From Calditrichota bacterium (GTDB lineage Bacteria; Electryoneota; RPQS01), in contig JACJVZ010000003.1 in the NCBI GenBank assembly GCA_020637445.1, positions 210,150 through 274,149 of the forward strand: a stretch of 64,000 bases of DNA. Direction: 5' to 3'. The notes beneath the pieces are model-generated. The model worked only from the letters and a program-made list of their open reading frames with translations. It did not search any database and had not been told where the DNA came from. Made by a program: the position numbers and the translations under genes. Positions 14,688 through 30,593 of the stretch are shown one piece after another (the first letter of the stretch is position 1; every line of letters starts with the position of its first letter).

Positions 14688-14877
14688 ACAATGTACGCAA
14701 AGTCGGCTTTTCAAGCAGATTTTGCGGGTGAATGCTGATGCAAATCATTGAATATAGTGTTCTTTGAAATTCGACAAACTTAATCAAGGTTTTTTGATAA
14801 TTGCTCTGATTCTCTTGCACTTGCGCGAACCAGAAGGTAATTTGTAGGTGACACTAACAGTAAAAGGGGATTATGTC

Positions 14878-17800
14878 ATGAGAGCAAGGATTTTGCTGTT
14901 GAGCCTTGCGGCACTGATGATGATCGGAGAGCGGGGAGTGCTCGCTGATTCAGCACAAGTATCTGAAGTCCGTGGCCAAAGATTGCGGACGGAACTGCAA
15001 AAGACGAACGATTCGGCAAAACAGAGAGCGATCAGAAAAGAGATTTCGCAGCGTGCGCAGACTCGGGAGCGGAGAGACTCGCGCGAACGGTTGGATCAGG
15101 GAGGAGAAACATGCTCTTTGCCGACGGACTTGACAGGAATGCCGATTCCGATTGTCGTGTCCGGAACCACCATCGACTTCGCGGACGACTACAATTGTGC
15201 AGGATTCGGTCCCGCGCCTCCGCCCTGCTGGACAGGCTACTACGATCAGCTGACTTCGTGTTCCGGGCCGGACGTGGTCTACAGGTTTACACCGCCGGCA
15301 GACGGGGATTACCGTTTTTCGTTGTGCAATTCGGATTACGACACGGGAATCCTGATCTTTAACGATAACTGTCCGCCGAATTTTCCGACGGACTTCGTCT
15401 GCGGAAACGACGACTATTGCAATGTTCAGACTGAGATCGTATCGCTTTCTCTGACCTCCTCGCAACCGATATTGGTTATTATCGACGGCTGGAATGGTGA
15501 TGCGGGAAACTACGAGTTGGTGATTGATTTTGCGGAGCCGCCGCCGCCCAACGACGATTGTTTCGGTGCACAGTTCATCGAGGCGCCGTCTTTGGTGTCA
15601 GGATCGACGGCCAATGCAACGTATGACGATGCGCCGTTCGTCTGCGGAGGGTCGGTCATCGACGGTCCGGGAGTTTGGTATACGACTCTGGGAACTGGAA
15701 ATACGATGACCGTGAATACGTGCTTGCTGGACGGCTATGACACTCAGATCGCCGTTTACCAAGGAGGTTGTACGGGTTTGACGTGTGTTGACGGCAATGA
15801 TCAATTCTGCCTGAATCAGAGTCAAGTGACGTGGTGCAGTCAAGCGGGAGAGCAGTATTTCATTCTCGTGCACGGTTATCAGGGACAGGCCGGAGATTTT
15901 GTGTTGGAACTCACGGACGACGGCATCCCGTGCGGAGGAACGACGCCTGTACTATCCATCCTTGAAGTTTACGAGAACTTGCCGGACTTGGTAGGTCAAC
16001 AGGTGACCATCCGGGGCTTTGGTTCCGGCCCGAATCAGGGGATTATCACGGAAACTGAAGGTGATTGGCTGCGCAACACGGAGCTTGAGCCGTATTCGGC
16101 GCTCAAAGTAGTCGGACTTGATCCTTGGAATATTTACATTCCTGAGTTGATGTGGGGGCAGTACATCGAAGTGCAAGGTATCATTGGCGCGATTCCGATC
16201 TCGCCGGACGTGCCGCCGGGATATGAGGCCACGATTGAAGTCAACGCGCCTGCGGTCGTGGTCCCGAGCACGCCGCATGTGCCGGTAACTCAGGGAAATT
16301 GGCGGCCAGCCAATTGGACTCCAGACACGACGAATTGTGATACGTGCAATTTCGGGATGTTCATCTCGGGCGGAATCGACAGTGCAAACAACCGGGACGA
16401 CTACTGGGATGATTTGGTTGATTTCTACTGTTACAAAACCGGCGCCGGGTATTGTCCGCAGAATATCAACATCTACTATTTCAAAGGCGACACGCTGGAC
16501 GGTAGAATACCTCCTGCGCGAGTGGACTCTTGCACACAGGCAAAGATTCAGGCCAGAATCAATGCGATTGCCAGCAAGGTCAAGGCTTGCAAAGATGCTG
16601 GCAAAACACCCAAGGTTGAGATTGTCGTGACGAATCACGGAAAACATCCTCCCAACGGTGGAATCAATATTCTGGGCCGCGACGGGGCCGGCAGTTCAAA
16701 CGCGATATCGCCGCATGATTTCACATCCATGATCCAGACTTTGTGCGATTCTGGAGCTGCAAATATCGAGATTGAGTTAGGCGAGTGCTTCAGCGGACAG
16801 ATGGTCAATCATCTTCGCGACAGTTTGGACACTAAAGGCGCAAATGTCACGGCAGCTTCGGCGGCGCCGGATTCACTTTCGAGTTGGAGCAAAGGCAAGA
16901 AGGGCGGCTGGAACCGTTGGCTGAATCCGTTGGTTTGCGCGAGATACTCGGGAGAAAGCCTTCCCGAAGCGATTCGTAGAGCGAATCAAAGCTACGACTC
17001 TTCTCTTGTGCAGCTTGATTCGTTGTTCCGGGCATGGGCAGCTTATCTCGATTCACTTGGTACACACGGAGACTCGGTGAAGGCCGCCAAGTACCGCCGG
17101 TGGGCCAGCGACGCCATCAACGGCAAGGGCGGAGAAACCGTTTGGTTCAGCAGAACGTTCAAAGAATCGTGCAACGGAGACACGATATCGGTTTCGCCGG
17201 GCGGCAGACTTGAATTCACGTATTCCGGTCCGAACTCGAGCTGCGGCAACAGCGAGATTATTTGCAAAAACACGGCCGGCCATTGGATCAATTACCGCCA
17301 TTGGAATTGGAACGTACCGGGCTCCGCGGGTTACCACACTGGCAACAATGTCCGCACGTTGGATGCCGGTGCGGGACACACAGGACTCTACGTCATTCAC
17401 AGTTTGAGTGATTCATTCAGGGTTTCTATCAAATCCATCAATCCACCGCTTCCTCCAAGTCTTTTGACCTCTGCTTCGAATCCTGAAGACTATGCGGGCT
17501 TCGGTGTGGGCTGGACATCGGGAAATTCGGATGAATTCGGGGCAATCAATACGGCCACACTGACACTCCCGGACGTGGACGACGACGGATTTGATCTGTC
17601 GACGGCTCCGAAACTGCTCGGCCCGGGCGGAGTGGGACAATTGTTCGCGGACTTTGACGTGTTGGCGGAGAACTATTGGTGGACGGACATGCGGGTTTAT
17701 ATGCGCGTGCTCGGAGGAACGGCCGGTGTGACGGTGACAGCGGACTGTCCCGATTGCGAATTCTCCAATGTTTCGTACGATCTCGCGGGCGGAGACGAGA

Positions 17801-18144
17801 AATTTTATTTGAACCTCGGTTCGATCAACGTGGTGGGTTCACATACGTTGTCGCTCACGGCGACCGGAACAACGGAATTGGATTGTTGGGGACTTGAATC
17901 GGCACACTCGACGGGAACACCGCTGCCTGTGACGGATCTTGTGATCATTCGTGACGGCGACAACATCAACCTTCACTGGAGCGCGGTGCCGCTTGCCGTC
18001 AGTTATTTGGTACAGAGAGCTGCATCCGAGAATGGGCCGTGGGCAACCATTGGATTGGCTTTCGGAACGACTTTCGTGCATACGGGACAAGCGGCGTCCT
18101 CAGACGAGCAGCTTTACTACCAAGTGATCGCGGTTAGTCCGTAG
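14878..18144 (+). CDS. Large secreted multidomain protein: two PPC-like jelly-roll domains, clan-CD (legumain/gingipain-like) cysteine peptidase candidate, C-terminal Fn3-like domain
   Basis: Start at ATG (MRARILLLSLAALMMIG) with AAAGGGG upstream; putative His-Cys dyad in strand-associated motifs IVVTNHGKHP and IEIELGECFSGQM; no T9SS CTD. Confidence 0.75.
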   Translation: MRARILLLSLAALMMIGERGVLADSAQVSEVRGQRLRTELQKTNDSAKQRAIRKEISQRAQTRERRDSRERLDQGGETCSLPTDLTGMPIPIVVSGTTIDFADDYNCAGFGPAPPPCWTGYYDQLTSCSGPDVVYRFTPPADGDYRFSLCNSDYDTGILIFNDNCPPNFPTDFVCGNDDYCNVQTEIVSLSLTSSQPILVIIDGWNGDAGNYELVIDFAEPPPPNDDCFGAQFIEAPSLVSGSTANATYDDAPFVCGGSVIDGPGVWYTTLGTGNTMTVNTCLLDGYDTQIAVYQGGCTGLTCVDGNDQFCLNQSQVTWCSQAGEQYFILVHGYQGQAGDFVLELTDDGIPCGGTTPVLSILEVYENLPDLVGQQVTIRGFGSGPNQGIITETEGDWLRNTELEPYSALKVVGLDPWNIYIPELMWGQYIEVQGIIGAIPISPDVPPGYEATIEVNAPAVVVPSTPHVPVTQGNWRPANWTPDTTNCDTCNFGMFISGGIDSANNRDDYWDDLVDFYCYKTGAGYCPQNINIYYFKGDTLDGRIPPARVDSCTQAKIQARINAIASKVKACKDAGKTPKVEIVVTNHGKHPPNGGINILGRDGAGSSNAISPHDFTSMIQTLCDSGAANIEIELGECFSGQMVNHLRDSLDTKGANVTAASAAPDSLSSWSKGKKGGWNRWLNPLVCARYSGESLPEAIRRANQSYDSSLVQLDSLFRAWAAYLDSLGTHGDSVKAAKYRRWASDAINGKGGETVWFSRTFKESCNGDTISVSPGGRLEFTYSGPNSSCGNSEIICKNTAGHWINYRHWNWNVPGSAGYHTGNNVRTLDAGAGHTGLYVIHSLSDSFRVSIKSINPPLPPSLLTSASNPEDYAGFGVGWTSGNSDEFGAINTATLTLPDVDDDGFDLSTAPKLLGPGGVGQLFADFDVLAENYWWTDMRVYMRVLGGTAGVTVTADCPDCEFSNVSYDLAGGDEKFYLNLGSINVVGSHTLSLTATGTTELDCWGLESAHSTGTPLPVTDLVIIRDGDNINLHWSAVPLAVSYLVQRAASENGPWATIGLAFGTTFVHTGQAASSDEQLYYQVIAVSP

Positions 18145-18326: not shown

Positions 18327-18403
18327 TTAGAGCTATAGGTGGCAAACAGTTATTTCGGACAGCGCACGCGCCGTCCGCATAGTATTAAGTCAGGAGATTG
18401 ATC

Positions 18404-19939
18404 GTGGCGACAGCGACAGAGAAGAAGAAAGCCAGCCCGAACGGCGGCAAGGGCAAGACCAAAGTTTATCAGAATTTTATCGCCGGGAAGTGGTGCGACA
18501 GCTCGAACGGAGCAATTGTCGAAAACCGCAATCCGGCGATGTGGTCGGATTTGATTGGAACATTTCCGCACAGCACCAAGGAAGATGTGGACCGCGCGGT
18601 GAAGTCGGCGCAAAAGGGGTTTAAGAATTGGCGCTTGATTCCGCCTCCGCAGAAGGCGAAACTGTTCTTCCGTTTGGTGGAGATTTTGACCGAACGCAAA
18701 GAGCAGCTCGCGTTTGATATGACGCGCGAGATGGGCAAACCGATTTTTGAAACGCGCGGCGACGTGCAGGAAGCGATTGACACGGCGTGGTATGCCAGCG
18801 GCGAAGGCTATCGCATGTTCGGCAAGACCGTTCCGTCGGAACAGAACAACAAGTTCGCCATGACCGTGCGGATGCCGATCGGCGTGGCGGGATTGATCGC
18901 GCCGTGGAATTTCCCGATGGCGATTCCGTCGTGGAAAATTATTCCTGCGCTGATGTGCGGCAACACGGTCGTGTTCAAGCCCGCCGAATTGGTACCGCTG
19001 TCATCGCATAATTTCATTCAAGCGATTTTGGACGCGGGTTTCCCGCCGGAAATCATCAACCTCGTGCATGGGTCGGGCAAAGAAGTCGGCGCACATATGG
19101 TGACGCATCCCGATATTCCGCTGATTTCGTTTACCGGTTCATCGGCGGTGGGTCGCACGATTGGCCGCGACGCGAGCGGCATGCTGAAGCGCGTCTCGAT
19201 GGAACTGGGCGGCAAGAACGCTCAGATCGTGATGAACGACGCCGATTTGGATCACGCGGTGGAGTGTGCGATCTGGGGCGGCTTCGGCACGACGGGTCAG
19301 CGCTGCACGGCGACGTCACGGGTGATTTGTGAAGAAGGCATTCACGATGCGTTCGTCGAGAAGTACAAGAAGGCCGCGAAGAAACTTAAGATCGGTTACG
19401 GCAACAACGCCGACGTGACGATGGGGCCTTGCGTGAGCGAGGGCCAACGCAAGACGGTGCTCGACTATGTCGAAGTCGGCAAGAAGGACGGCGCGGAACT
19501 CGTATTGGGCGGCAAGGCGCTGACCAAGGGTGATCATGCCGACGGATGGTTCATGGAGCCGACGATTTTCACGGGTGTGAAGCCGAACATGCGGATTGCG
19601 CAGGAAGAAATTTTCGGACCGGTGGTGTCGGTGCTGAAGGCCAAGAATTTCGACGACGCAATCAAGATCAGCAACGGAATCGACTACGGTCTGTCGAGCG
19701 CGGTGTTTACGAAGAACGTGGATCAGGCGTTCCGCGCGTTCCGCGACATCGAAGCCGGGATCACCTACGTCAACGCGGCAACAATCGGCGCCGAAGCGCA
19801 CATGCCCTTCGGCGGCCTGAAAGCCACCGGCAACGGTCACCGCGAAGGCGGCTGGGAGGTCTACGAATTCTATTCAGAGACCAAGAGCTGCTACGTTGAT
19901 TACTCGGGCAAGCTCCAAAGAGCGCAGATTGACGAATGA
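18404..19939 (+). CDS. NAD(P)-dependent aldehyde dehydrogenase
   Basis: ALDH signatures ELGGKN and catalytic Cys in GQRCTA; GTG start 6 nt after AGGAG preferred over the ORF-track TTG at 18398. Confidence 0.9.
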
Positions 19940-19947
19940 GTTCAGGT

Positions 19948-19976
19948 CACTGGCGGAGTATGCTGCTCCGCCAGTG
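19948..19976 (+). terminator. Hairpin after the aldehyde dehydrogenase gene (terminator-like, no T-tract)
   Basis: Perfect 11-bp stem cactggcggag / ctccgccagtg with 7-nt loop, 9 nt after the stop codon. Confidence 0.4.
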
Positions 19977-19983
19977 ATTCCGG

Positions 19984-20026
19984 ATTCCGGCGGGGAACCG
20001 CTGCGCTAAATCCCCGCTCGGCGAAT
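19984..20026 (+). repeat. Conserved motif family 2, copy A
   Basis: gattccggcggggaaccgctgcgctaaatccccgctcggcgaa; 6-bp stem cgggga/tccccg around the conserved loop accgctgcgct. Confidence 0.6.
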
Positions 20027-20044
20027 TTGAACAAATTGCAACCT

Positions 20045-20521
20045 ATGCACTCCTTCCTCCAAAATCTCGTCAACTACAACACGTGGGCGAACAATGAAGT
20101 TGTTGAGTCGCTCAGGAGTTGTCCGGAAGTGCCGCGCGACGCGGTGATACGGCTGTCGCACATTCTGGAAAACAACTGGTATGTGCTGGACATTATTGAC
20201 GAGCAGGATCTTTCTAAATGGGATGCGGACCGGGATTACACCATTGACGAGTGCATCGCCGAAATTCCGAAGATTGACGCGGCGTACAAAAAGCTGCTTG
20301 GCGAGTTAAAGGACGAACAGCTTGAGTACTCCGTGCGATTCACGGACGTCGCTGGACGGAATGTTGAGCGACGGATTTCGGAATTGATATTTCACACGTT
20401 CGATCATTGCAGTCACCATCGCGGGCAGATTGCGATGATTGTTCGCGAAGCGGGCGGCGAGCCTGCACAAACTTGGTATAACCGGTGGATTCGCGAGACG
20501 GGTCGCGGAAAGAACTCTTGA
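20045..20521 (+). CDS. DinB/YfiT-like family protein
   Basis: First ATG of the ORF (MHSFLQNLVNYNTWANN...); C-terminal HTFDHCSHHRGQIAMI histidine cluster typical of the DinB fold. Confidence 0.75.
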   Translation: MHSFLQNLVNYNTWANNEVVESLRSCPEVPRDAVIRLSHILENNWYVLDIIDEQDLSKWDADRDYTIDECIAEIPKIDAAYKKLLGELKDEQLEYSVRFTDVAGRNVERRISELIFHTFDHCSHHRGQIAMIVREAGGEPAQTWYNRWIRETGRGKNS

Positions 20522-20535
20522 ATTGGTTTGAGCCG

Positions 20536-20742
20536 ATGGGTTGGATTTATCGTCCGCGTCATCTTTTGGGATGGGCAATTACACTTGCCGCCTGTGCGGC
20601 ATGTGTTTGGGTCTTTCTCGCCGTAGATCGCAATTCGCACTCGGCGAGCGACACACTTATCGGAGTTTTTCCCTACGCCGCGCTGTTTATTATTATTTGG
20701 GGCTGGATTGCTTCAAAAACTTCACTTCGACAAGGGAGCTAA
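20536..20742 (+). CDS. Small hypothetical membrane protein
   Basis: 68 aa from internal ATG; two predicted TM helices; no RBS seen; weak call. Confidence 0.3.
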   Translation: MGWIYRPRHLLGWAITLAACAACVWVFLAVDRNSHSASDTLIGVFPYAALFIIIWGWIASKTSLRQGS

Positions 20743-20744
20743 GC

Positions 20745-21161
20745 ATGGATTTGATGGACCTGATGAAAGGCGCAGGCAGTATTCTCGGCGATCAAGGCAA
20801 GGACGTGAACGTCGGCGGTCTGGCCGGTTCGGTCTTAGGTATGATTCAGAATGATTCCGGTGGTGTCGGTGGACTCGTCGAGCAATTTGCCAAGAACGGC
20901 ATGGGCGATATCGCAAAGTCTTGGGTCGGCTCGGGCAATAACCTGCCGGTGAACGGCGACCAGTTGATGCAGGTCTTCGGCGAACAAAAACTCGGCGCGA
21001 TGGCTGAACAATCCGGCATGAACTTGCAGAAGTTCCTCCCGATTCTCGTCGCCGCGCTGCCGATGATTATCGACAAACTGACTCCCGACGGCGAAGTCAA
21101 CGACAAGAGCAACAACATGCTTCAGCAAGGCATGGGTTTGCTGGGCTCGTTTCTGAAGTAA
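20745..21161 (+). CDS. YidB-like (DUF937) protein
   Basis: Start MDLMDLMKGAGSILG chosen inside ORF-track model 20541..21161; Gly/Met/Gln-rich composition typical of YidB. Confidence 0.65.
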   Translation: MDLMDLMKGAGSILGDQGKDVNVGGLAGSVLGMIQNDSGGVGGLVEQFAKNGMGDIAKSWVGSGNNLPVNGDQLMQVFGEQKLGAMAEQSGMNLQKFLPILVAALPMIIDKLTPDGEVNDKSNNMLQQGMGLLGSFLK

Positions 21162-21179
21162 TTGGTTTGGTGAAACACC

Positions 21180-22526
21180 GTGTTAAGATCCGTGATTTGC
21201 GGGTTGGTAATCTTGATGTTTGCGAATATCTCGCGAGCACAGGAAGTTTCAGTACCACTGGACAGCGCGGGAAAGCTCTTTGTCATCGACACCGACTTGG
21301 AGCGGCGGCTCGGACTGTTTGACGACTATCCGGGATTCATAGAAGCACGACTCTATCAAGCGAACGAAATCGAATTTTATCTTGAAGTCTTGCACGTCAA
21401 AGATTCGGTTACCGTTCGCTCAAGAGTTCCCGAAACTCCCGAACAAGTGGTCGAGATTCGCCGGCGAGTGACGGATGCCATAGCCTTGCGCGCTCCCGAT
21501 GCCATGTACAATCACAAAGGGCGCGGCGGCTTGCTGGTCAACAGCGCAATTTTGTCGATGGGCTATTATAGCTGGGCGGTGCCCGTCGCCACGAACGCTG
21601 AAGGCGCGGGAGCGGTGGCATCGTTTTTCTTTCTCGGATCAGCGGGAATCATGATCCCGTATTTCATAACCGAGCACTCGAACGTCGCGGTTTCGACGGC
21701 GATGATGGACTTCTACGGCGGCTCGCGCGGCATCGCGCATGGTATCGCCCTGTACTACGCGATGGATCCACAAGAAGACAGTGAGCGCGCGCCGTATGGT
21801 TGGGGAGTCGCGGGAAGTCTTGCGGAACGATTCGCGTTCAGTCAGTGGGCGCGCAAGACAGGAATGTCGGATGGCAAAGCCGCCGTAATTGGAGCCGTCG
21901 GGGATTTTGGATTGGTGTTGAGTGTTGTGCTTGGCACCGGCCACGATCTTTGGGACGGAGAACACCAGCAAGACGCTGGACTCATGGCGCTTGGGGGTTC
22001 CGCTGTTGGTTTGTTTGCCGGAAGTCAGTTGGCCGACCACGGCGATTATTCTCGCGGCGACGCATATGTGCTTCGCGCAATCGGTATTTTGGGCGCGGCC
22101 GTGCCTGCGACAATTGCCGATGCTACACACTCGGACGGACAACTGGCCTCGAATCTTGCAACAGCAGGATCAGTAGTAGGCTTAGGCGTCGGTCATGCGA
22201 TATTAAAGAACCGCGACTTCACGCGCTCGCAGGGCCTGGCGATTCTCGTTCTTGAAATCGCGGGAGCGACGCTGGCAACGGCGGTGGTCATTGAAACTGA
22301 AGCGGATGACTCAACGCCGTATTCGGTTGCGGCGACCCTCGGCGGAGCAGCAGGATTTGCGCTCTCGTATTCGATGGCAAGCAAATCCGCGCGCGTTTTA
22401 AGAAAAGCAGACAATTTGGACATAAAGCTGAATCATTGGCCTCTGTTTGCGTCGTTTCCGGAAAAGTCACGCTCTGATTACGAACACAAAGCCAAATTGG
22501 CACTTTCTCTAATCTACGAGTTTTAG
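21180..22526 (+). CDS. Hypothetical membrane protein with signal peptide and Gly/Ala-rich transmembrane segments
   Basis: 448 aa; GTG start; N-terminal soluble region followed by at least five GxxxG-rich hydrophobic segments. Confidence 0.6.
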   Translation: MLRSVICGLVILMFANISRAQEVSVPLDSAGKLFVIDTDLERRLGLFDDYPGFIEARLYQANEIEFYLEVLHVKDSVTVRSRVPETPEQVVEIRRRVTDAIALRAPDAMYNHKGRGGLLVNSAILSMGYYSWAVPVATNAEGAGAVASFFFLGSAGIMIPYFITEHSNVAVSTAMMDFYGGSRGIAHGIALYYAMDPQEDSERAPYGWGVAGSLAERFAFSQWARKTGMSDGKAAVIGAVGDFGLVLSVVLGTGHDLWDGEHQQDAGLMALGGSAVGLFAGSQLADHGDYSRGDAYVLRAIGILGAAVPATIADATHSDGQLASNLATAGSVVGLGVGHAILKNRDFTRSQGLAILVLEIAGATLATAVVIETEADDSTPYSVAATLGGAAGFALSYSMASKSARVLRKADNLDIKLNHWPLFASFPEKSRSDYEHKAKLALSLIYEF

Positions 22527-22529
22527 AGT

Positions 22530-23021
22530 ATGAACGAACATTCTTCGCACCTCAGGCAGATACAGAAAGCCTTCGAAGGCGAAGCGTGGCACGGGCCGTC
22601 GCTGATGGAGGCATTGGACGGCGTGGACGCGCACATGGCAAAACGCCGCTGGGTGGATGGCGTGCACACGATATGGGAAATCGCATTGCACACGGTGGCT
22701 TGGAAGCGCGCTGTAACCAAGTGGATCGAGGGTGACGACACAATTCGAGTGGAAGACGACGAGAATTTCCCGATGCCTGAGCAAGGCGACGACGCGGAGT
22801 GGGAACACGTTTTGAACGAACTGAAAGTTGCGCAGGCAGAGTTTCTGGCCGTCGTCTCGCGACTATCCAACGACAAACTCTATGAAAACCCGCCCGGTCG
22901 AACGACGATTTACTCGGACTACCTGTTCGGAGTGGTTCATCACGATCTTTATCATGCCGGACAGATTTCACTGTTGAAGAAGGCTGCGCAAGCGGAAATG
23001 CAGGGCAGTAAGGTAAAATAG
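22530..23021 (+). CDS. DinB_2/YfiT-like family protein (paralog A)
   Basis: 163 aa; C-terminal VVHHDLYHAGQISLLKK motif. Confidence 0.8.
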   Translation: MNEHSSHLRQIQKAFEGEAWHGPSLMEALDGVDAHMAKRRWVDGVHTIWEIALHTVAWKRAVTKWIEGDDTIRVEDDENFPMPEQGDDAEWEHVLNELKVAQAEFLAVVSRLSNDKLYENPPGRTTIYSDYLFGVVHHDLYHAGQISLLKKAAQAEMQGSKVK

Positions 23022-23024
23022 GTC

Positions 23025-23498
23025 ATGAGCGAAGTCACAAGACTTGTGGGACTGATGGGGCTTGCGTTTGACGGCGACGAGGACGGCGACGGCAGGTTTG
23101 GTCCCGCGCTTATGCCGCAACTTGTGAACGTTGACGCGAAGTTCGCCCTCAACAGACCGTTGCCGGACGCACATTGCATCTGGGAATTAGTGCTTCATCT
23201 CGCAGCGTGGAAAAGATATGTTGCGAAGAGGCTGCAAGACGAACCGGCGGACATTACACCGGAGATGAACTGGGAATCGATTCCACAAACGGACGAGCAA
23301 GCATGGAAAGGCGCACTGCAAAGCCTGCGCGAGACTCATGTGAAAGTGGTTGAGGTCGCCTCAAGACTTAAAGACGAGCAGCTTGCGACGCCTTGCGCGG
23401 GCGGCACAATCCCACGATATCAGGTTCTTCAAGATATTGTTCAACACGACGTCTATCATGGCGGACAGATCGCGATTTTGAAAAAAGCGAAGCTCTAA
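23025..23498 (+). CDS. DinB_2/YfiT-like family protein (paralog B)
   Basis: 157 aa; C-terminal IVQHDVYHGGQIAILKK motif; 3 nt after paralog A. Confidence 0.8.
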   Translation: MSEVTRLVGLMGLAFDGDEDGDGRFGPALMPQLVNVDAKFALNRPLPDAHCIWELVLHLAAWKRYVAKRLQDEPADITPEMNWESIPQTDEQAWKGALQSLRETHVKVVEVASRLKDEQLATPCAGGTIPRYQVLQDIVQHDVYHGGQIAILKKAKL

Positions 23499-23502
23499 AA
23501 TC

Positions 23503-23781
23503 ATGCCGAACGAAGAGTATCTTACGACTGCGGAGGCTGCGGCGCTCTTGAAAGTGAGTAAGAGCACCGTGCGGATGTTAGCCCGCGAGGGCCAGTTGCC
23601 AGCGGTCCGCGTCGGTGTTCAATGGCGAATTCCGCATGAAGCCCCTGAGCTTTGGCTTTACCGGCAGAAACAAGCGGCGGTGCGCGGAAAATCATCTTTG
23701 AAGACTGAGCGGCGCGCGAAAAGATCGGGATTCGACGATCTGCTCAAGATTTCGGGACCGATTAGGCTGGAGGCGAAGTGA
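23503..23781 (+). CDS. Excisionase/MerR-type helix-turn-helix DNA-binding protein (putative antitoxin)
   Basis: 92 aa; LTTAEAAALLKVSKSTVRMLAREGQLPAVRVGVQWRI is a typical HTH_17-like motif. Confidence 0.7.
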   Translation: MPNEEYLTTAEAAALLKVSKSTVRMLAREGQLPAVRVGVQWRIPHEAPELWLYRQKQAAVRGKSSLKTERRAKRSGFDDLLKISGPIRLEAK

Positions 23782-23845
23782 ACTCACCGGGCGTTTCTAC
23801 CCCCCTTGCCTCCCCCGGAGGACCGGAGGGGAATCGGAAAGTACC

Positions 23846-24295
23846 ATGCTGAAGTGTATTGATACCAGCTTGCTGCTGATCGCGACGGACACGACTCATC
23901 CGCTGTCGGAGCGCGCGGCGAAATACTTAAAATCGTGCGCGGCTGAACCGTGGGTGTCCTGCGTGTGTTACGCGAGTTTGGTAAGATGGAGCGAGCGGGT
24001 GACTTCGGCGGAATTTTGCGAAGCTCCATTGAAGTCTTCTGCGGTGCAGAATTCGATTGAAGCCATGCTGAAGCGGCGCGAGCCTCTGATTCTATACGGT
24101 GACGAGTTGATTTTGCGGCGGGCGCTGAAACTTTGCGGCAAGCACGCCGTACTGAAGGACAAACTCCACGAAGCGCACGTTGCCGCCACGGCCTTGGCAC
24201 ACGGAGTGAAAACCATTGTGACGGCCGACTCTGCTCCGTATCTTGCGGTGCGCGAGTTGACGGTTGAAAATCCGTTTGAAACTCTGTTTGCCTGA
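23846..24295 (+). CDS. PIN-domain protein (VapC-like putative toxin)
   Basis: 149 aa; N-terminal IDTSLLL, internal EAHVAATALA and C-terminal IVTADSAPY match the acidic residues of PIN nucleases. Confidence 0.65.
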   Translation: MLKCIDTSLLLIATDTTHPLSERAAKYLKSCAAEPWVSCVCYASLVRWSERVTSAEFCEAPLKSSAVQNSIEAMLKRREPLILYGDELILRRALKLCGKHAVLKDKLHEAHVAATALAHGVKTIVTADSAPYLAVRELTVENPFETLFA

Positions 24296-24301
24296 TCGCG
24301 C

Positions 24302-25111
24302 GTGACGAGTTGGTTTCAAGCGGCGGGCTACGACTTTCAGGAGTTTACGGCGAACGGGCTGCGAACGTTTGCCGTCGTGGAAGGACAGTCGGGCGGTTTT
24401 CCGCTGGTGCTGCTCCATTCGATTCCCGCGGCGTCATTTGTTTGGTCGACGACCATTCAAGCGATCGGCAGATCGAGCAGAATTATCGCACCCGACTTAC
24501 CGGGTTGGGGCAGGTCGCATAACCGGATTGCGCCGGTGGACTTCAGGCTGACTCGTGAATCCCTGAGTGCTTGGCTTACGGACGTAATATCCGCGCAACA
24601 ATGCGAGCGGTGCGATATTGCGGGATTGGGCGATGGCGCGTGGCTTGCGATGGAGTTCGTGCGCGAACATGCAAATAAGGTGCGCAGGTTGGGGCTGTTG
24701 AACTTGCCGATAGCGCCTAAGATTCTGCCAGCGCGCCGCTGGCCGTGGCAGAAACAGGATTGGACAGGTCGGCGTTTGACTAAGTGGTTGGCGGATACGG
24801 CGGGACTTACCGACGCATTGGAATCACAGTTTGACGAACTTTTTGCGGGCGGTTGGCATGTCGAGCGCTCTCCAGAATTTCCAAGCTCGGAGTATCTCCG
24901 TGAAATCAAGGCATATCGCGATAGATTGCGGAATTTCGAAGGAGAGATATTGTTAGGCTGGGGGGCGAATTCGGCCGGTTTTGACAAAGAGCGAGCCGAG
25001 TGGTTCGCACAAGGGCGGCACATTGAGGTTTGGGAAAATGCCGGAGAGTTTCCGATGTGGGAACAGCCGGAACAGTTTGCAAGTGAAATGAGAGAGTTCT
25101 TCGGACAATGA
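24302..25111 (+). CDS. Alpha/beta-fold hydrolase
   Basis: 269 aa, GTG start; LVLLHSIPAASFVW...APDLPGWGRS and nucleophile-elbow-like GLGDGAW. Confidence 0.75.
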   Translation: MTSWFQAAGYDFQEFTANGLRTFAVVEGQSGGFPLVLLHSIPAASFVWSTTIQAIGRSSRIIAPDLPGWGRSHNRIAPVDFRLTRESLSAWLTDVISAQQCERCDIAGLGDGAWLAMEFVREHANKVRRLGLLNLPIAPKILPARRWPWQKQDWTGRRLTKWLADTAGLTDALESQFDELFAGGWHVERSPEFPSSEYLREIKAYRDRLRNFEGEILLGWGANSAGFDKERAEWFAQGRHIEVWENAGEFPMWEQPEQFASEMREFFGQ

Positions 25112-25234
25112 TATTTTTGAGGCTTGATTTCTTCGCGCTGACACGGCGCAATTCCGGCTCCACGGATCCTCCGCGGTGAATGGTCTCGTTTGTCCTTAAG
25201 TAGCAGAAACCATTTAACCAAAAGGAGGTTTGCC

Positions 25235-26584
25235 ATGTCGCATATCAACCCCAAAAACGTTCACGAAACGCTTTCGAAATACATGCTGGCCGACGGATTC
25301 GATCTGGTTTTCGATCTGGAAGAATCCAAAGGCACGTTTTTCCATGACTCTCGCCACGATCGCAAGTTCATGGACTTTTTCACGTTCTTCGCTTCGAGTC
25401 CGGTCGGATTCAATCATCCGCGCCTGACGTCGCCGGAGATGATCGAGAAACTGGGTAAGCTCGCCGTCAACAACATTACGAACTCGGATCTGTACACGGT
25501 TGAGTTTGCCGAATTCGTGGACACGTTTTTCAAGATCGCGGTACCGCCGCAGTTCAAGCACTCGTTCTATGTTTCGGGCGGCGCGCTCGGCGTGGAAAAC
25601 GCGATCAAAGCTGCGATGGACTGGAAGGTGCGCAAGAATTTCAAGAAGGGCTACCGCCGCGAGATCGGCAACCAGGTGATGCACTTCGAACAGTGTTTCC
25701 ACGGCCGCACGGGCTATACGCTGTCAATGACAAACACGGCCGATCCGAACAAGTACAAGTACTTTGCGAGATTCGATTGGCCGCGCGTGCTGAATCCGAA
25801 GCTGCGCTTCCCGCTGACGGAAGGTCATCTCGAAGAAGTCGAGAAGCTCGAGAAGCTCTCAATTGCCCAGATCAAGCAGCATTTCCATGAGCGCAAAGAC
25901 GAGATTTGCGCGATTGTGCTCGAACCGATTCAAGGCGAAGGCGGTGACAACCACTTCCGCACGGAGTACATGCAGGCGCTGCGCACGCTGGCGAACGAAA
26001 ACGACGCAATGTTGATTTTCGACGAAGTGCAGACGGGCGTCGGCTTGACCGGCAAGATGTGGGCTTGGCAGCATCACAACGTCGAACCGGATATGTTCTG
26101 CTTCGGCAAGAAGGCGCAGGTGTGCGGCTTTGTCGCGGGTCCGCGCATCGACGAGATCGACGACAACGTGTTCAACGTTTCGTCGCGCATCAACTCGACT
26201 TGGGGCGGCAACTTGATCGACATGTACCGCTTCAAGACATATCTTGAGATTATCAATGACGAGAACCTCGTCGACCATGCCGCGAAGACCGGCGAGAAGG
26301 CTCTGTTCATGCTGCAGAAGGTCGCCGACGAATATCCGCAGATGGTTTCCAATGTGCGCGGACGCGGCCTGATGTGCGCGTTCGATTTCCCGAACCCGTC
26401 GATTCGCAACCGGGTCGTAGATGCGCTGTATGAAAGCGGCGTGTGCATGCTGCCGTCGGGAACGCATTCGATCCGTTTCCGTCCGCCGCTGAATATTTCC
26501 GAATCGGAAGTTGCGGAAGGCGTCGACGTGATTCGCAAGTGTACGGGCGAAGTTCTCGAACAGGTTCAAATTCAACCTGCCTGA
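25235..26584 (+). CDS. lat: L-lysine 6-aminotransferase (class III PLP aminotransferase)
   Basis: Start MSHINPKNVHETLSKYMLADGFDLVFDLEES preceded by AAAAGGAGG; class III aminotransferase motifs including FDEVQTGVGLTGKMWAWQ. Confidence 0.8.
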   Translation: MSHINPKNVHETLSKYMLADGFDLVFDLEESKGTFFHDSRHDRKFMDFFTFFASSPVGFNHPRLTSPEMIEKLGKLAVNNITNSDLYTVEFAEFVDTFFKIAVPPQFKHSFYVSGGALGVENAIKAAMDWKVRKNFKKGYRREIGNQVMHFEQCFHGRTGYTLSMTNTADPNKYKYFARFDWPRVLNPKLRFPLTEGHLEEVEKLEKLSIAQIKQHFHERKDEICAIVLEPIQGEGGDNHFRTEYMQALRTLANENDAMLIFDEVQTGVGLTGKMWAWQHHNVEPDMFCFGKKAQVCGFVAGPRIDEIDDNVFNVSSRINSTWGGNLIDMYRFKTYLEIINDENLVDHAAKTGEKALFMLQKVADEYPQMVSNVRGRGLMCAFDFPNPSIRNRVVDALYESGVCMLPSGTHSIRFRPPLNISESEVAEGVDVIRKCTGEVLEQVQIQPA

Positions 26585-26623
26585 AGAGAAGATTGGCAAA
26601 GTTGAGTAGTCGTTTAGACAAAA

Positions 26624-26666
26624 CAGGCCGGGGGCTCTCGTGCGAGGGCCCCGGCCTTGTCATTTT
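26624..26666 (+). terminator. Intrinsic terminator candidate after lat
   Basis: Long GC-rich imperfect hairpin caggccgggggctctcg / cgagggccccggcctt followed by gtcatttt. Confidence 0.5.
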
Positions 26667-26669
26667 GGG

Positions 26670-27389
26670 ATGAGCGGCGAAGCACTCTTTCCCGAGGGAT
26701 CTTTAGCGGTCGTGGCCACACCGATCGGCAACTTGGGAGATTTTTCGTTTCGCGCGGTTGAAGTCCTAAAGGCGGCGGACGTGCTGCTCTGCGAAGACAC
26801 GCGGCACTCGAAGCGACTTCTGGATCACTATGCGATTCAGGTTGCGACGACGAGTTACGGCGCGCATAACTTGAAATCGAAACTGCCGTGGGTGCTGGAG
26901 CAGCTTGCACAGGGCAAGAAAGTTGCTCTGATCAGCGACGCGGGGACGCCGGGGATTAGTGATCCGGGGACGATGCTGGTAGGTTCGGCGATTGAGGCGG
27001 GGTATGAAGTTTTTACGGTGCCGGGAGCATCAGCGATGATTTCTGCGCTGGTGGTTTCGGGTTTGCGCACGGACAGTTTTGTGTTTGAGGGGTTTCTTCC
27101 TCACAAAAAGGGCCGGCAAACCAAACTCAAACAGCTTGCCGTCGAACCGCGCACGATTGTTTTGTACGAGAGTGTCCACCGGATTCAGAAGACGCTTTCG
27201 GAACTGCGCGAGTATTTGGGGGATCGCAGAGTAGCTGTTTGCCGCGAACTGACGAAGCTGCATGAAGAGATTGTACGCGGGAATTTTAGTGACGCGATTG
27301 CTCACTTCGAGAAGAATACGCCGAAGGGCGAGTTTGTAGTGGTGGTGGCGGGGACGGAGTCGTGGGAAAGGATGAAGGATGAAGGATGA
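26670..27389 (+). CDS. rsmI: 16S rRNA (cytidine1402-2'-O)-methyltransferase
   Basis: Start MSGEALFPEGSLAVVATPIGNLGD; tetrapyrrole-methylase-like fold motifs; the ORF-track start 26640 lies inside the upstream terminator hairpin. Confidence 0.9.
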   Translation: MSGEALFPEGSLAVVATPIGNLGDFSFRAVEVLKAADVLLCEDTRHSKRLLDHYAIQVATTSYGAHNLKSKLPWVLEQLAQGKKVALISDAGTPGISDPGTMLVGSAIEAGYEVFTVPGASAMISALVVSGLRTDSFVFEGFLPHKKGRQTKLKQLAVEPRTIVLYESVHRIQKTLSELREYLGDRRVAVCRELTKLHEEIVRGNFSDAIAHFEKNTPKGEFVVVVAGTESWERMKDEG

Positions 27390-27396
27390 AGGATTA
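27369..27396 (+). repeat. Heptanucleotide tandem repeat (AGGATGA)x3 plus one imperfect unit at the 3' end of rsmI
   Basis: aggatga aggatga aggatga aggatta; encodes the final MKDEG residues and contains the stop codon. Confidence 0.8.
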
Positions 27397-27451
27397 TGTC
27401 CGCGACTAATCAGGTTTTTCGATTTACCATTTTCAATTTTCTATTTAGCTT

Positions 27452-28279
27452 TTGCATCCTGACCTTTTTAAGATAGGACCGTTTGCGCTGCACAGCTATG
27501 GGCTGATGATGGCGCTGGCATTCGGATTCGGAATATGGATCGCGGCGAAGCGCGCGCCCGGGCGCGGCGTGCCAGGACAAGCGATCATGGATATTTCCGT
27601 GGCGGCGCTTCTGTTTGGTTTGGCGGGCGGACGCATCGCCTATGTGTTTACACATTGGAGAGAGTTCGAAGGCCATTGGATCGACACGATTTCGCCTATT
27701 CAAAGCGACGGCACGATTGGAATTGCCGGATTGGTGCTGCTCGGCGGAGTTGTGTTGGGATTTGGCGGCGCGTACTGGATGGCGCGGCGAAAAGGTGCGC
27801 AGTTCTTGACCGTAACCGACATCATGGTTCCGTCGCTGGCACTGGGTATTGCGTTCGGCCGGATCGGATGTTTTTTGAACGGATGCTGTTTTGGCAACGA
27901 GTGTGATTTACCGTGGGGCGTAGTTTTTCCCGAATCAAGTCTTGCGGGATCGGTCTATCCGCACGTGCATATTCATCCGACTCAGCTCTATGAATCCATC
28001 GCGATGGTCATGTTGTTCCTGTTCTTGTTGTGGCGCGACCGTACGCCGCTGGGCAAAGGAGTATTGACGGGCACGTTCTTGATACTTTACGGTATCTGGA
28101 GATACTACGTCGAGGGCCTGCGTTGGTACGAAGACGGGATGATCTTTGGACATATTGGCGATCACCGAATAACATTCTCGCGGATCATTTCCGCGGCCAT
28201 GGTGGTGATCGGAGTTTATTTGATTTCGCGAAAATCCGAACCCGATTCACCCCAACCCTCAGAACCCGATGTTTATTAG
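27452..28279 (+). CDS. lgt: Prolipoprotein diacylglyceryl transferase
   Basis: TTG start; Lgt signatures HSYGLMMALAFGFG and FGRIGCFLNGCCFG. Confidence 0.9.
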   Translation: MHPDLFKIGPFALHSYGLMMALAFGFGIWIAAKRAPGRGVPGQAIMDISVAALLFGLAGGRIAYVFTHWREFEGHWIDTISPIQSDGTIGIAGLVLLGGVVLGFGGAYWMARRKGAQFLTVTDIMVPSLALGIAFGRIGCFLNGCCFGNECDLPWGVVFPESSLAGSVYPHVHIHPTQLYESIAMVMLFLFLLWRDRTPLGKGVLTGTFLILYGIWRYYVEGLRWYEDGMIFGHIGDHRITFSRIISAAMVVIGVYLISRKSEPDSPQPSEPDVY

Positions 28280-28886
28280 TTTTGAAGGGATCGACGGATC
28301 GGGGAAATCAACTCAGATTGCGCGCACGGTCGCGTGGTTGAAAGAGCTTGATTTTGACGTGCTGGTGACACGGGAACCGGGGGGAACCACAGCGGGCGAA
28401 GCGGTACGGGAGTTGCTGCTTGATCCGAAGAGCCATTTGACGGGCAAAGCCGAGTATTTGCTTTATTCTGCTTCACGGGCACAATTGGTTGAAGAAATCC
28501 TGTTGCCGCACCTGAGAAAACACCGCGGCGTGGCCTTGGTCGACCGTTATGCGGATTCTTCGACGGTATATCAAGGCTCCGGCCGGGAGTTGGGACTCGA
28601 TGAAATCGAAGCGGTCAACATGTTCGTGACCGGGAACTTAGCTCCCGATTTGACGATTTACTTAGATGTGGATTATGAAACTTCAATTGCCCGGCGCGCT
28701 GCCAATGGCGGGACGCCGGATAGATTGGAACAGAATCCACGCGAATTTTTTGAAGCGGTCCGGCACGGATATTTGGAATTGTGCCGACGCCATTCCGAGC
28801 GCATAAGAAAGATCGACGCGCGCGGGAACGAAGACGATGTATTTGCGCAGGTGAAGGCAGCGATTGCCGCTCGCCTGCCGGGTTAA
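28269..28886 (+). CDS. tmk: Thymidylate kinase
   Basis: MFISFEGIDGSGKSTQ P-loop and REPGGT motif; overlaps lgt by 11 nt. Confidence 0.9.
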   Translation: MFISFEGIDGSGKSTQIARTVAWLKELDFDVLVTREPGGTTAGEAVRELLLDPKSHLTGKAEYLLYSASRAQLVEEILLPHLRKHRGVALVDRYADSSTVYQGSGRELGLDEIEAVNMFVTGNLAPDLTIYLDVDYETSIARRAANGGTPDRLEQNPREFFEAVRHGYLELCRRHSERIRKIDARGNEDDVFAQVKAAIAARLPG

Positions 28887-28907
28887 ACCACGGGAATAGG
28901 GTGTGCT

Positions 28908-30593
28908 ATGACGCACAGACGATTGTACCTCTTGCTGATTTCGATATTGCTTCCGCTGACGGTGTTTGCCGGAGCGCGCAACATGTCGGCGGACGAGCTC
29001 TACGCGAAGATTCATCACAACATGGGGCTGTTCGGCGATATTTACCGCGAGATCAGCTTGCGCTACGTGGATCAGATCGATCCGGATGAGTTCGTGCAAG
29101 CGGGAATCGACGGCATGCTCGAGACTCTCGATCCGTACACGGTATATATTCCCGAGGAAGACACCGATGACATCGATGTGATCACGTACGGCAAGTACGG
29201 CGGCGTAGGCATCGAGATCGGTGTTCGTGGTGAAGATAAGGTGTTGACGGTGATCAGCGCAATGGATGATTCTCCCGCTCAGCGCGTGGGCATGCGCAGC
29301 GGCGACCGTGTGATCGAAGTAGACGGTCAGTCGATGATCGGCAAGTCGACTCGCGACGCGTCGCGGCTTTTGCGCGGCGAACCGGACACGCATGTCATGA
29401 TCAAAGTCGAACGGCCGGGCGCGATCGAGCCCATTGAATTCGATTTAAGCCGCCAAGTCATCAATGTAAAGGACGTTGCCTACAGCGGGTTCGTGGAGCC
29501 CGGAATTGGCTATATCAAACTGGCGCATTTTTCGACGCGCGCACAAAGCGAGCTCGACGAAGCGCTGCTTGACTTGCAAAGCAAGGGAATGCACTCTTTG
29601 ATTTTGGATCTGCGCGGAAATCCGGGCGGGTTGATGAGCGCGGCAGTCGGCGTGCTGCAGAAGTTTATGGACAAAGGTGAAGTCGTGGTTTCCACGAAAG
29701 GACGCGCGCCGGATGCGAACCGCACGTTCAAACTCGCGAGCGATCCGATAGCCAAAGACGTGCCGCTGGCGGTGTTAATAGACGGAGGGTCGGCGTCTGC
29801 ATCGGAAATTGTCGCCGGTGCGATTCAGGACCTCGACAGGGGAGTTTTGATCGGCGAACCGACTTTTGGCAAAGGGCTTGTGCAGTCGGTGATTTCATTT
29901 GAGACGGGCGAAGCTCTGAAATTGACGACCGCGAAGTATTTCACGCCGTCGGGCCGGTTGATTCAGAAGGTCGATTATTTTGGCGACGACACGACTTTTG
30001 TGATTTCACCGATTGAAGAATCGACGGACACGGCATTCACGACGCGCAACGGACGCAAAGTCGAAGGCGGAGGCGGAATAGAGCCTGACATAATGGTCGA
30101 AACTCCTCAGCCGGGACAGTTGGGCGTGGAACTCTGGCGCAAAGGGACGTTTTTCGATTTTGTGACGCAGTTCATCGCAGAAAACCCCGGCGTTACCGAC
30201 GCGAAAGTCAGCGAGCAGATGATCGATCAGTTCCGCGATTGGCTCGTAGAGAATGACTTCAATTATTCCGTGGACGGCGAGAAGGAACTTGAAACGCTGC
30301 GTGAGATTCTCACCACCTTCAATTTGGAGAACGACGCGGAAGCGGACTTTGCGCACCTTGAGCACTATTTGGAGCTTGTGCGAGACCGGGATTTCGACGA
30401 AGAGCGGCCGTTCATCAAGAACAGTTTGCAGACCGAGCTTGGAAATTCATTGTACGGCAGCACGGGCCGAATCGAAGCGAGTTTTGACAGCGATCCGCAG
30501 ATTTTGCAAGCGGTCGAGGTCTTGAACAACAACAGCGAATACGGAAAACTGCTTGCTGTGACAACGGACAGTTCGCAAACGAAAGGCGAATAG
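28908..30593 (+). CDS. Carboxyl-terminal processing protease (peptidase S41) with PDZ domain
   Basis: 561 aa; signal peptide; PDZ (GMRSGDRVIEVDG); S41 core GGSASASEIVAGA. Confidence 0.9.
   Translation: MTHRRLYLLLISILLPLTVFAGARNMSADELYAKIHHNMGLFGDIYREISLRYVDQIDPDEFVQAGIDGMLETLDPYTVYIPEEDTDDIDVITYGKYGGVGIEIGVRGEDKVLTVISAMDDSPAQRVGMRSGDRVIEVDGQSMIGKSTRDASRLLRGEPDTHVMIKVERPGAIEPIEFDLSRQVINVKDVAYSGFVEPGIGYIKLAHFSTRAQSELDEALLDLQSKGMHSLILDLRGNPGGLMSAAVGVLQKFMDKGEVVVSTKGRAPDANRTFKLASDPIAKDVPLAVLIDGGSASASEIVAGAIQDLDRGVLIGEPTFGKGLVQSVISFETGEALKLTTAKYFTPSGRLIQKVDYFGDDTTFVISPIEESTDTAFTTRNGRKVEGGGGIEPDIMVETPQPGQLGVELWRKGTFFDFVTQFIAENPGVTDAKVSEQMIDQFRDWLVENDFNYSVDGEKELETLREILTTFNLENDAEADFAHLEHYLELVRDRDFDEERPFIKNSLQTELGNSLYGSTGRIEASFDSDPQILQAVEVLNNNSEYGKLLAVTTDSSQTKGE

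Follow-up and report, generated by a model that had tools for sequence, protein, structure and literature searches.

Two adjacent genes in a 64,000-nucleotide stretch of Calditrichota bacterium contig JACJVZ010000003.1 (the whole of this stretch is called the window below) encode a small helix-turn-helix (HTH) DNA-binding protein and a PIN-domain protein. On balance, this pair is best explained as a domesticated, VapBC-derived HTH–PIN complex whose nuclease is attenuated or lost, and a tamed regulatory complex appears more likely than a working poison–antidote system. A preliminary description, made from the nucleotide sequence, had proposed a type II toxin–antitoxin (TA) module of the VapBC kind with an HTH antitoxin. 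The present interpretation draws on the identity of both domains, on their pairing, synteny and co-divergence in relatives, on purifying selection, on the erosion of the catalytic columns of the PIN protein and on the absence of relatives from collections of mobile elements.

Identity of the HTH and PIN proteins

The arrangement first described, an HTH open reading frame (ORF) of 92 residues followed after a 64-nt gap by a PIN ORF of 149 residues, was confirmed together with its coordinates (Table 1). The N-termini of both proteins agree with those of all homologs, and the annotated starts are therefore considered right; the PIN frame contains no start codon further upstream. Both domain assignments also hold in searches with hidden Markov models (HMMs), in which HTH_17 and PIN exceed their Pfam cut-offs, narrowly in the case of PIN. 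The latter is matched over residues 4–129 by Pfam PIN (PF01850) with 26.1 bits, the gathering threshold being 23.6 (E = 1.4e-5). With TIGR00028 (Mtu_PIN_fam, VapC family ribonuclease toxin), the protein scores 42.7 bits, under the curated cut-off of 73.6, and is thus a relative of this family and not a member.

Queried with the single PIN sequence, the PDB gave no match. A profile built from the family and from its nearest relatives, referred to below as outgroup PINs, reached Mycobacterium tuberculosis VapC43 (7VWO, 7vwo_A) with E = 1.9e-20, followed by other VapCs and FitB. The AlphaFold2 (AF2) model of the PIN protein (pLDDT 82, pTM 0.78) shows an α/β/α sandwich with a parallel β-sheet, the region of the last strand (residues 136–142) being modeled with low pLDDT. 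Using Foldseek, the best match to this model was again VapC43 (TM 0.73, E = 1e-6), then VapC20, VapC26, Rickettsia felis VapC2 and FitB. The PIN protein is a VapC-family homolog.

Its partner is matched by Pfam HTH_17 (52.6 bits for a cut-off of 27, E = 5.5e-14) and by TIGR01764 'excise' (57.6 bits for a cut-off of 28.8, E = 1.2e-15), while Pfam MerR (23.8 bits, threshold 28.2) and, slightly, Rv2175c_wHTH remain under threshold. No sequence match to any PDB chain was found for the HTH protein. In its AF2 model (pLDDT 73), the winged HTH spans residues 9–44, with helices at 9–16 and 20–29 and the wing at 35–44, and is followed by a long helix (46–62), a disordered basic linker and a short helix (76–84). 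The nearest folds to the HTH domain are RacA, Pukovnik Xis, NmlR and BldC, RdfS being likewise similar. Twelve residues (T8, T9, A13, L16, S19, T22, A27, R28, G30, G38, W41 and R42) are invariant even when distant HTH members are included. In the C-terminal region, conservation of R74 and G76 reaches at least 90% over 16 divergent partners, and by analogy with VapB antitoxins the motif that holds them may bind the PIN protein. As modeled, the HTH partner is built like a type II antitoxin, its N-terminal winged HTH being joined by a disordered linker to a C-terminal helix that is conserved. The defense protein MAD1 of the MADS system was considered and rejected as an identity for this protein (32.6 bits for a cut-off of 80; 26.8 bits with the PADLOC mad1 model; no MADS genes nearby), and the weak HTH-level matches in PADLOC (mad1, AbiEi) reflect similarity at the domain level only.

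Pairing and inheritance of the locus

Besides the window, 25 further distinct loci were compared, 19 of them from species-representative genomes, two reached via PIN homologs and four via divergent HTH homologs; duplicate copies of the same loci were left out of the count. Initial searches among 5.8 billion proteins returned 32 PIN clusters and 17 HTH clusters, all from metagenome-assembled genomes (MAGs) which, if named, were labeled 'Calditrichaeota' or 'KSB1'. In an exhaustive profile search, the PIN family proved to be sharply bounded, with three 50%-identity clusters at E ≤ 1e-33 and the next matches at 1e-19. Similarly, the HTH-family profile search showed a sharp E-value boundary and gave about 108 clusters. 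Nine loci (L007, L009, L014, L017, L019, L020 and L023–L025) come from MAGs titled 'uncultured Alphaproteobacteria bacterium'; they agree with Calditrichaeota/KSB1 MAGs in locus order and reach 81% PIN identity to them, and these titles look like placeholders or errors.

All of the further loci that cover the sequence (24/24) have both genes on one strand, with HTH immediately before PIN; the sequence of L019, which ends 40 nt short of its PIN gene, stands outside this count. Nine loci show a 4-nt overlap (ATGA) between the two genes; the distance is 0–9 nt in ten and 41–66 nt in five as well as in the window. The 64-nt gap of the window is the longest reliable one in the family, since the 66 nt of L032 are found in an indel-rich assembly and the other relatives reach 54 nt at most. 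In the preliminary description, this gap was considered wide enough to make co-transcription uncertain. The gap is indeed unusually long; nevertheless, nine relatives overlap their genes by ATGA and the spacer contains no terminator-like site. Because the HTH and PIN genes overlap or abut in relatives, the doubt is answered for the family. The spacer has an unremarkable predicted RNA fold (z = 0.24) and no Rfam match. Two irregular sequences were noted in the family: L032, in which the Aldedh, aminotransferase and NAD synthase genes and the PIN N-terminus are split, as is typical of indel-rich assemblies, and P0049, whose 112-aa product continues from the HTH gene into the PIN N-terminus, probably by a frameshift.

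The surroundings of the pair are conserved as well. A common frame, Aldedh … DinB … HTH–PIN … α/β-hydrolase … class-III aminotransferase … (NAD synthase) … RsmI, is found in all relatives with sequence, whether their PIN identity is as high as 82% or as low as 40%. Each of the 19 species-representative assemblies contains one HTH–PIN locus. PIN identity to the window follows that of the aminotransferase (Pearson 0.95, n = 18) and also correlates with the identity of RsmI (0.85) and of the HTH protein (r = 0.94). Compared with seven relatives, the ratio of nonsynonymous to synonymous substitution rates (dN/dS) was 0.06–0.15 for PIN, 0.06–0.11 for the class-III aminotransferase, 0.11–0.21 for RsmI and 0.14–0.20 for the α/β-hydrolase, two unsaturated estimates for HTH being 0.08 and 0.12; these values are only approximate because dS is saturated. 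Judged from these ratios, the HTH–PIN pair is under strong purifying selection, equal to that on its housekeeping neighbors (dN/dS of about 0.1), and the comparison of loci indicates vertical inheritance at a single chromosomal position.

Consistent with this, GC content around the locus is flat (0.54–0.58), giving no signal of horizontal transfer. No relative of the family was found in 72,556 plasmids, 50,697 phage genomes and 2.9 million viral contigs (IMG/VR), collections which under-sample uncultured FCB phyla, so that their silence alone is weak evidence. The nearest outgroup PINs resemble ordinary mobile VapBC systems, one having a Phd/YefM partner beside HEPN/MNT and another adjoining an integrase fragment. 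In two distant relatives, genes for Y1_Tnp (IS200/REP-associated tyrosine transposase-like) proteins were observed a few kb upstream of the pair (L030, 1168–1746; L032, 1439–1927). The neighborhood accepts insertions, and the HTH–PIN pair stays.

The 'excise' domain match and the fold similarity to Pukovnik Xis and RdfS could be taken to mean that the HTH protein is the excisionase, or recombination directionality factor, of an integrated element, or else that HTH and PIN are merely unrelated neighbors. Such an element would have to be reconciled with the absence of integrase, transposase and att-like repeats within ±10 kb of the pair, over which distance the preliminary description was correct in reporting no integrase or other mobile-element genes, and with a locus that is syntenic in every relative examined. 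Chance proximity is contradicted by the strict co-occurrence of the two genes and by their co-divergence. Because of this synteny and co-divergence, an excisionase or a fortuitous neighbor is effectively refuted and retains a negligible probability.

The region upstream of the pair is short. The HTH gene starts 4 nt past the DinB_2 stop in the window, and 2–6 nt past it in most of the closest relatives, so that the pair is left without an intergenic promoter region of its own. No σ70-like site was found for the pair, and near the HTH start only trivial repeats were observed. A promoter may lie within the upstream coding sequence or follow a non-σ70 consensus; as far as can be read from the DNA, the usual autoregulated promoter and operator of type II TA systems are not evident. 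Perfect GC-rich hairpins with 4-nt loops were seen 60–70 nt upstream of the HTH start in L005 (GGTGACTCT-caag-AGAGTCACC), L018 and L022, which are the three loci with a long upstream spacer (115–187 nt). The hairpin sequences differ between these loci; they may serve to terminate the preceding gene or act as operators particular to a lineage.

Erosion of the catalytic center

The active sites of PIN domains contain three almost invariant acidic residues, located after strand S1, at the N-terminus of the crossover helix and after S4, and a fourth one at a variable position, usually after S2, activity needing at least four (PMC5499597). These positions were followed in an alignment of 43 family sequences and the 146 nearest outgroup PIN clusters, in which 149 columns were ranked by entropy. 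In the outgroup, positions 6, 47 and 109 are 98–99% conserved and occupy ranks 1–3 of 149. Within the family, the corresponding ranks are 42, 112 and 62, position 128 ranks 98, and no catalytic column is invariant (Table 1). The glycine found at position 6 is confined to one subclade. At position 131, which is unranked, the outgroup has Asp in 76% of cases and the family mostly Pro (P19, G7, T6 and others). Counted strictly, the full acidic tetrad is present in 3/43 family sequences vs 128/146 outgroup sequences (nominal Fisher p = 2e-23, a value which ignores phylogenetic non-independence). A lenient count, in which the strand-2 acid was accepted at position 42, 43 or 47, since VapC43 has this acid at the 42-equivalent position, raised the family figure to 10/43 (outgroup, 128/146). 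The losses differ among subclades, giving 22 distinct residue patterns at the catalytic columns.

The motifs quoted in the preliminary description are all present in the window PIN, with D6 in IDTS, E109 in EAHVAATA and D128 in TADS. They do not, however, amount to the full set of expected acidic residues, since on alignment the strand-2 Glu is replaced by Arg47 and no nearby acid substitutes for it (Tyr is found at position 42 and Ala at 43). E109 stands where relatives have Asp. With the pattern D6 / Y42-A43-R47 / E109 / D128, the protein thus has three carboxylates instead of the required four. A PIN sequence from an ENA metagenome contig (P0001), 99% identical to that of the window, differs from it only by A127G and D128V (TADS→TGVS) and has lost one more, near-invariant acid; this difference may reflect true variation or a fault in the assembly.

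By contrast with these columns, 22 others are invariant in the family, including K3, T7, D15, R23, W36, C39, C41, P80, H119, T126, R136 and the C-terminal V-E-N-P-F-E-x-L-F. In this tail, V140, E141, N142, P143, F144, E145, L147 and F148 are identical in 43/43 sequences. Among the 146 outgroup PINs, the columns of K3, R23, W36, R136, E141, E145, L147 and F148 are hypervariable. The alignment thus points to a shift in evolutionary rate, in which constraint moved from the nuclease center to other surfaces. In this lineage, the PIN protein has largely lost its conserved catalytic residues, and its nuclease would be attenuated or lost.

Invariant residues of this kind may also be explained by a remodeled enzyme, that is, a housekeeping RNA-processing nuclease under HTH control, neither toxin nor pseudo-enzyme, with a new site built for example from D15, D86, H119, E141 and E145. 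D15, H119, E141 and E145 are invariant and D86 is present in 42/43 family sequences, these residues being unconserved in the outgroup. In the topology of the AF2 model, D86 comes after the third strand, which places it along the sheet's C-terminal edge, the location of PIN active sites (PMC5499597). This possibility, to which conservation at the housekeeping level and the presence of RsmI and Tmk among the neighbors would lend some weight, is nonetheless improbable, as residues 136–142 are modeled with low confidence, no known PIN family has such a site and the neighborhood, although syntenic, is functionally heterogeneous.

The rival with more in its favor is the one first proposed, a functional classical type II VapBC module with an active ribonuclease PIN and a labile, autoregulating HTH antitoxin, which would be chromosomally stable by chance. 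VapC homology and fold, the antitoxin-like architecture of the partner and the strict adjacency of the two genes with the ATGA overlap of nine relatives all conform to it, and some family members are already labeled 'VapC family toxin' in databases. PIN–MerR modules are moreover a predicted TA class (PMC2701414), and a core-genome TA locus has a precedent in Rv0909-Rv0910, conserved across its genus (PMC2781298). Against these stand the deep synteny of the locus and its absence from mobile-element collections, both atypical of such modules; most M. tuberculosis TA loci, including vapBC43, are island-borne and confined to the complex (PMC2781298). The lack of an upstream intergenic region and operator of its own likewise speaks against a classical module.

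At the active site, the evidence divides in the same way. The window PIN keeps three of the four acids, and some relatives keep all four. On the other side, its catalytic Glu is an Arg with no substitute acid nearby, the near-identical P0001 is without D128, and the catalytic columns are relaxed across the whole family when the rest of the PIN protein is strongly constrained. The eroded tetrad therefore argues against strong toxicity, without deciding it. The preliminary proposal of a VapBC-like module is thus sustained as to VapC homology, antitoxin architecture and gene order; the eroded tetrad, the vertically inherited locus, the missing operator and the absence of plasmid or phage relatives do not fit it. 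Altogether, a classical module is an unlikely explanation, though a far more serious one than the remodeled enzyme.

Several observations weigh against a domesticated pair with an impaired nuclease. D6, E109 and D128 are retained in the window PIN, D6 and E109 being fully conserved in its own subclade, and residual metal binding or nuclease activity may persist. A fourth carboxylate might come from D86, which is near-invariant and follows strand 3, or from D15, which is invariant. VapC43 is also without Glu at the position-47 column, so that the strand-2 acid appears to be movable in this subfamily. Four relatives (L005, L015, L016 and L031) have kept both the full tetrad and ATGA-overlapped genes and, on their sequences, could be active TA systems. 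No operator was found, nor any inverted repeat common to 21 upstream regions. To these must be added the approximate nature of the dN/dS values.

With these points taken into account, the following course of events is proposed for the domesticated pair. A VapBC-type module would be ancestral and would have become a permanent part of the chromosome in an FCB-group lineage, whose MAGs are labeled Calditrichaeota/Calditrichota, KSB1 (= Ca. Zhuqueibacterota) or AABM5. Descent from an active VapBC is suggested because gene overlap persists in the deepest-branching members, a few of which also have the whole tetrad. The HTH protein would bind DNA via its N-terminal winged HTH of the MerR/excisionase class and, as VapB antitoxins do, would use the R-x-G…helix motif conserved near its C-terminus to hold the PIN protein. 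The latter would keep the VapC fold under selection that no longer maintains a four-carboxylate metal site; Arg47 would bring a positive charge into the acidic pocket, probably neutralizing it. Other residues, together with the new C-terminal tail VENPFE.LF, are strictly conserved instead.

The erosion of the metal site, taken with the conservation of these other residues and of the tail, points to the present function. Most likely, the two proteins would form a stable HTH–PIN nucleoprotein or regulatory complex, with the PIN subunit acting as a non-catalytic or weakly catalytic oligomerization or binding module and not as a growth-arresting ribonuclease freed by antitoxin decay. In a more specific and more tentative version, which is possible but falls short of even odds, an early-captured VapBC would have been turned into a core two-subunit factor, combining a pseudo-nuclease PIN, a new surface (W36, R23, R136 and VENPFE.LF) and a housekeeping regulatory or nucleic-acid-binding role.

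Genomic setting and relation to known systems

Table 1. Positions in the window of the HTH–PIN pair, of its functional elements and of the adjoining genes. Residue counts are for 146 outgroup PIN clusters and 43 family sequences.
Feature	Positions	Strand	Remarks
DinB_2 gene	23025..23498	+	ends 4 nt before the HTH start
HTH_17/excisionase-type (truncated MerR-like) DNA-binding protein gene, antitoxin-like partner	23503..23781	+	92 aa, start MPNEEYLTT
Winged helix-turn-helix domain, residues 6–51	23518..23655	+	from HMM envelopes
Conserved C-terminal motif KRSGFDDLLK, residues 73–82, candidate PIN-binding helix	23719..23748	+	from conservation and model
Intergenic spacer, 64 nt	23782..23845	+	between the HTH and PIN genes
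VapC-like PIN-fold protein gene, degenerate catalytic center	23846..24295	+	149 aa, start MLKCIDTS
Codon D6, canonical acid after strand 1	23861..23863	+	outgroup Asp 99%; family D36, G7 (84% Asp)
Codon R47, canonical catalytic Glu column	23984..23986	+	outgroup Glu 98% (143/146); family E16, R15, K8, A2, S1, D1
Codon E109, crossover-helix N-terminus	24170..24172	+	outgroup Asp 98% (143/146); family E36, D2, G/H/R/Q/P once each
Codon D128, after strand 4 (TADS)	24227..24229	+	outgroup Asn 75%/Asp 23%; family D29, Q5, N3, E3, H, R, V
Family-specific C-terminal tail VENPFETLFA	24263..24292	+	residues 140–145, 147 and 148 invariant in the family
α/β-Hydrolase gene	24302..25111	+	starts 6 nt past the PIN stop
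Class-III aminotransferase gene	25190..26584	+	downstream of the α/β-hydrolase, as in all relatives with sequence
RsmI gene	26640..27389	+	downstream of the aminotransferase, as in all relatives with sequence

Within ±10 kb, the pair is flanked on the same strand by housekeeping genes, namely those for an aldehyde dehydrogenase, DinB, YidB, a 448-aa ORF and two DinB_2 proteins upstream, and for the α/β-hydrolase, the class-III aminotransferase, RsmI, Lgt, Tmk and an S41 protease downstream. From Aldedh to the S41 protease (18398–30593), about 14 genes form an unbroken one-strand array in which several junctions measure 3–6 nt. The tight junctions, together with a gene order that is largely conserved in relatives, suggest that this array is one or a few long operons.

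Three genes of the DinB/DinB_2 superfamily lie within 3.5 kb (20027–20521, 22530–23021 and 23025–23498), the last two being tandem paralogs placed before the HTH gene. The second of this tandem evolves faster, with 49–58% identity vs 71–82% for the first in five of the closest relatives. The 448-aa ORF (21180–22526) is Gly/Ala-rich with hydrophobic stretches and matches no Pfam family, apart from a sub-threshold similarity to Sugar_transport; in closer relatives, it is found with 53–59% identity directly upstream of the DinB_2 genes. Further upstream, positions 10953–14624 encode a 1223-aa protein with β-helix/PMP repeats and a weak Por_Secre_tail match (type IX sorting signal), consistent with an FCB-group organism, and the 1098-aa ORF that follows (14848–18144) has no Pfam match. 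Over the entire 64-kb window (1–64000), no tRNA gene was found and no Rfam family reached its gathering threshold.

Among solved structures, the closest relative of the PIN protein belongs to VapBC43 (Rv2871-Rv2872, 7VWO), which contains a VapC of the TIGR00028 type and likewise consists of two genes with a small upstream partner. VapC43 shares with the window PIN the missing Glu at the position-47 column, but has Asp at the position of E109 and a further Asp one helical turn before position 47, where the window PIN has Tyr42. Since the HTH partner of the window matches no PDB chain, VapB43 is not of the same HTH type. The genetic settings also differ: vapBC43 is borne on a genomic island, as are most TA loci of M. 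tuberculosis, and is not conserved outside the M. tuberculosis complex (PMC2781298), whereas the window pair is syntenic across a deep lineage.

A class of PIN–MerR TA systems was predicted in 2009 by Makarova, Wolf and Koonin (PMC2701414). By description, its members resemble the window pair, combining a PIN protein with a small, truncated MerR-like HTH protein devoid of the dimerization helix. However, they have an extra small N-terminal domain, proposed to bind the PIN protein, while the HTH domain of the window protein starts at residue 6 and its extra motif is C-terminal. In addition, the predicted class is enriched on plasmids, in contrast to the window family, for which no plasmid match and vertical inheritance were found.

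In FitAB from Neisseria gonorrhoeae (2BSQ, 2H1C, 2H1O), a PIN protein (FitB) is similarly bound tightly to a DNA-binding partner, the solved entries including DNA-bound FitAB. FitB, deposited as 'trafficking protein B', is a structural match to the model of the window PIN and a weak, remote profile match (E about 0.6). FitAB offers the closest functional analogy for a PIN subunit working within a DNA-binding complex. Its FitA component is a ribbon-helix-helix protein and not a winged HTH protein as in the window pair. For PIN domains that have outlived their catalytic residues, the comparison is with eukaryotic Utp23 (vs Utp24) and SMG5 (vs SMG6), in which the fold is kept under selection after carboxylate loss in a binding or scaffold role (PMC5499597, PMC12923823). 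These proteins have an unrelated sequence context and no HTH partner, and the analogy concerns the evolutionary mode only.

TA modules are usually treated as selfish, mobile elements with a fast turnover, and the HTH–PIN pair behaves in the opposite way. While precedents exist for inactive PIN domains and for core-genome TA loci, the combination of deep synteny with a rate shift at the active site is noteworthy. If confirmed, the pair would offer a clean example from nature of TA domestication, a bacterial counterpart to the inactive PIN paralogs of eukaryotes. It would also call for caution in TA censuses of uncultured phyla, as annotation designates any pair of a PIN and a small DNA-binding protein as a 'VapBC toxin–antitoxin'. 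Finally, with subclades in which the active site is intact and others in which it is eroded, the family would provide a tractable two-protein system for studying the role of the PIN fold after nuclease loss.

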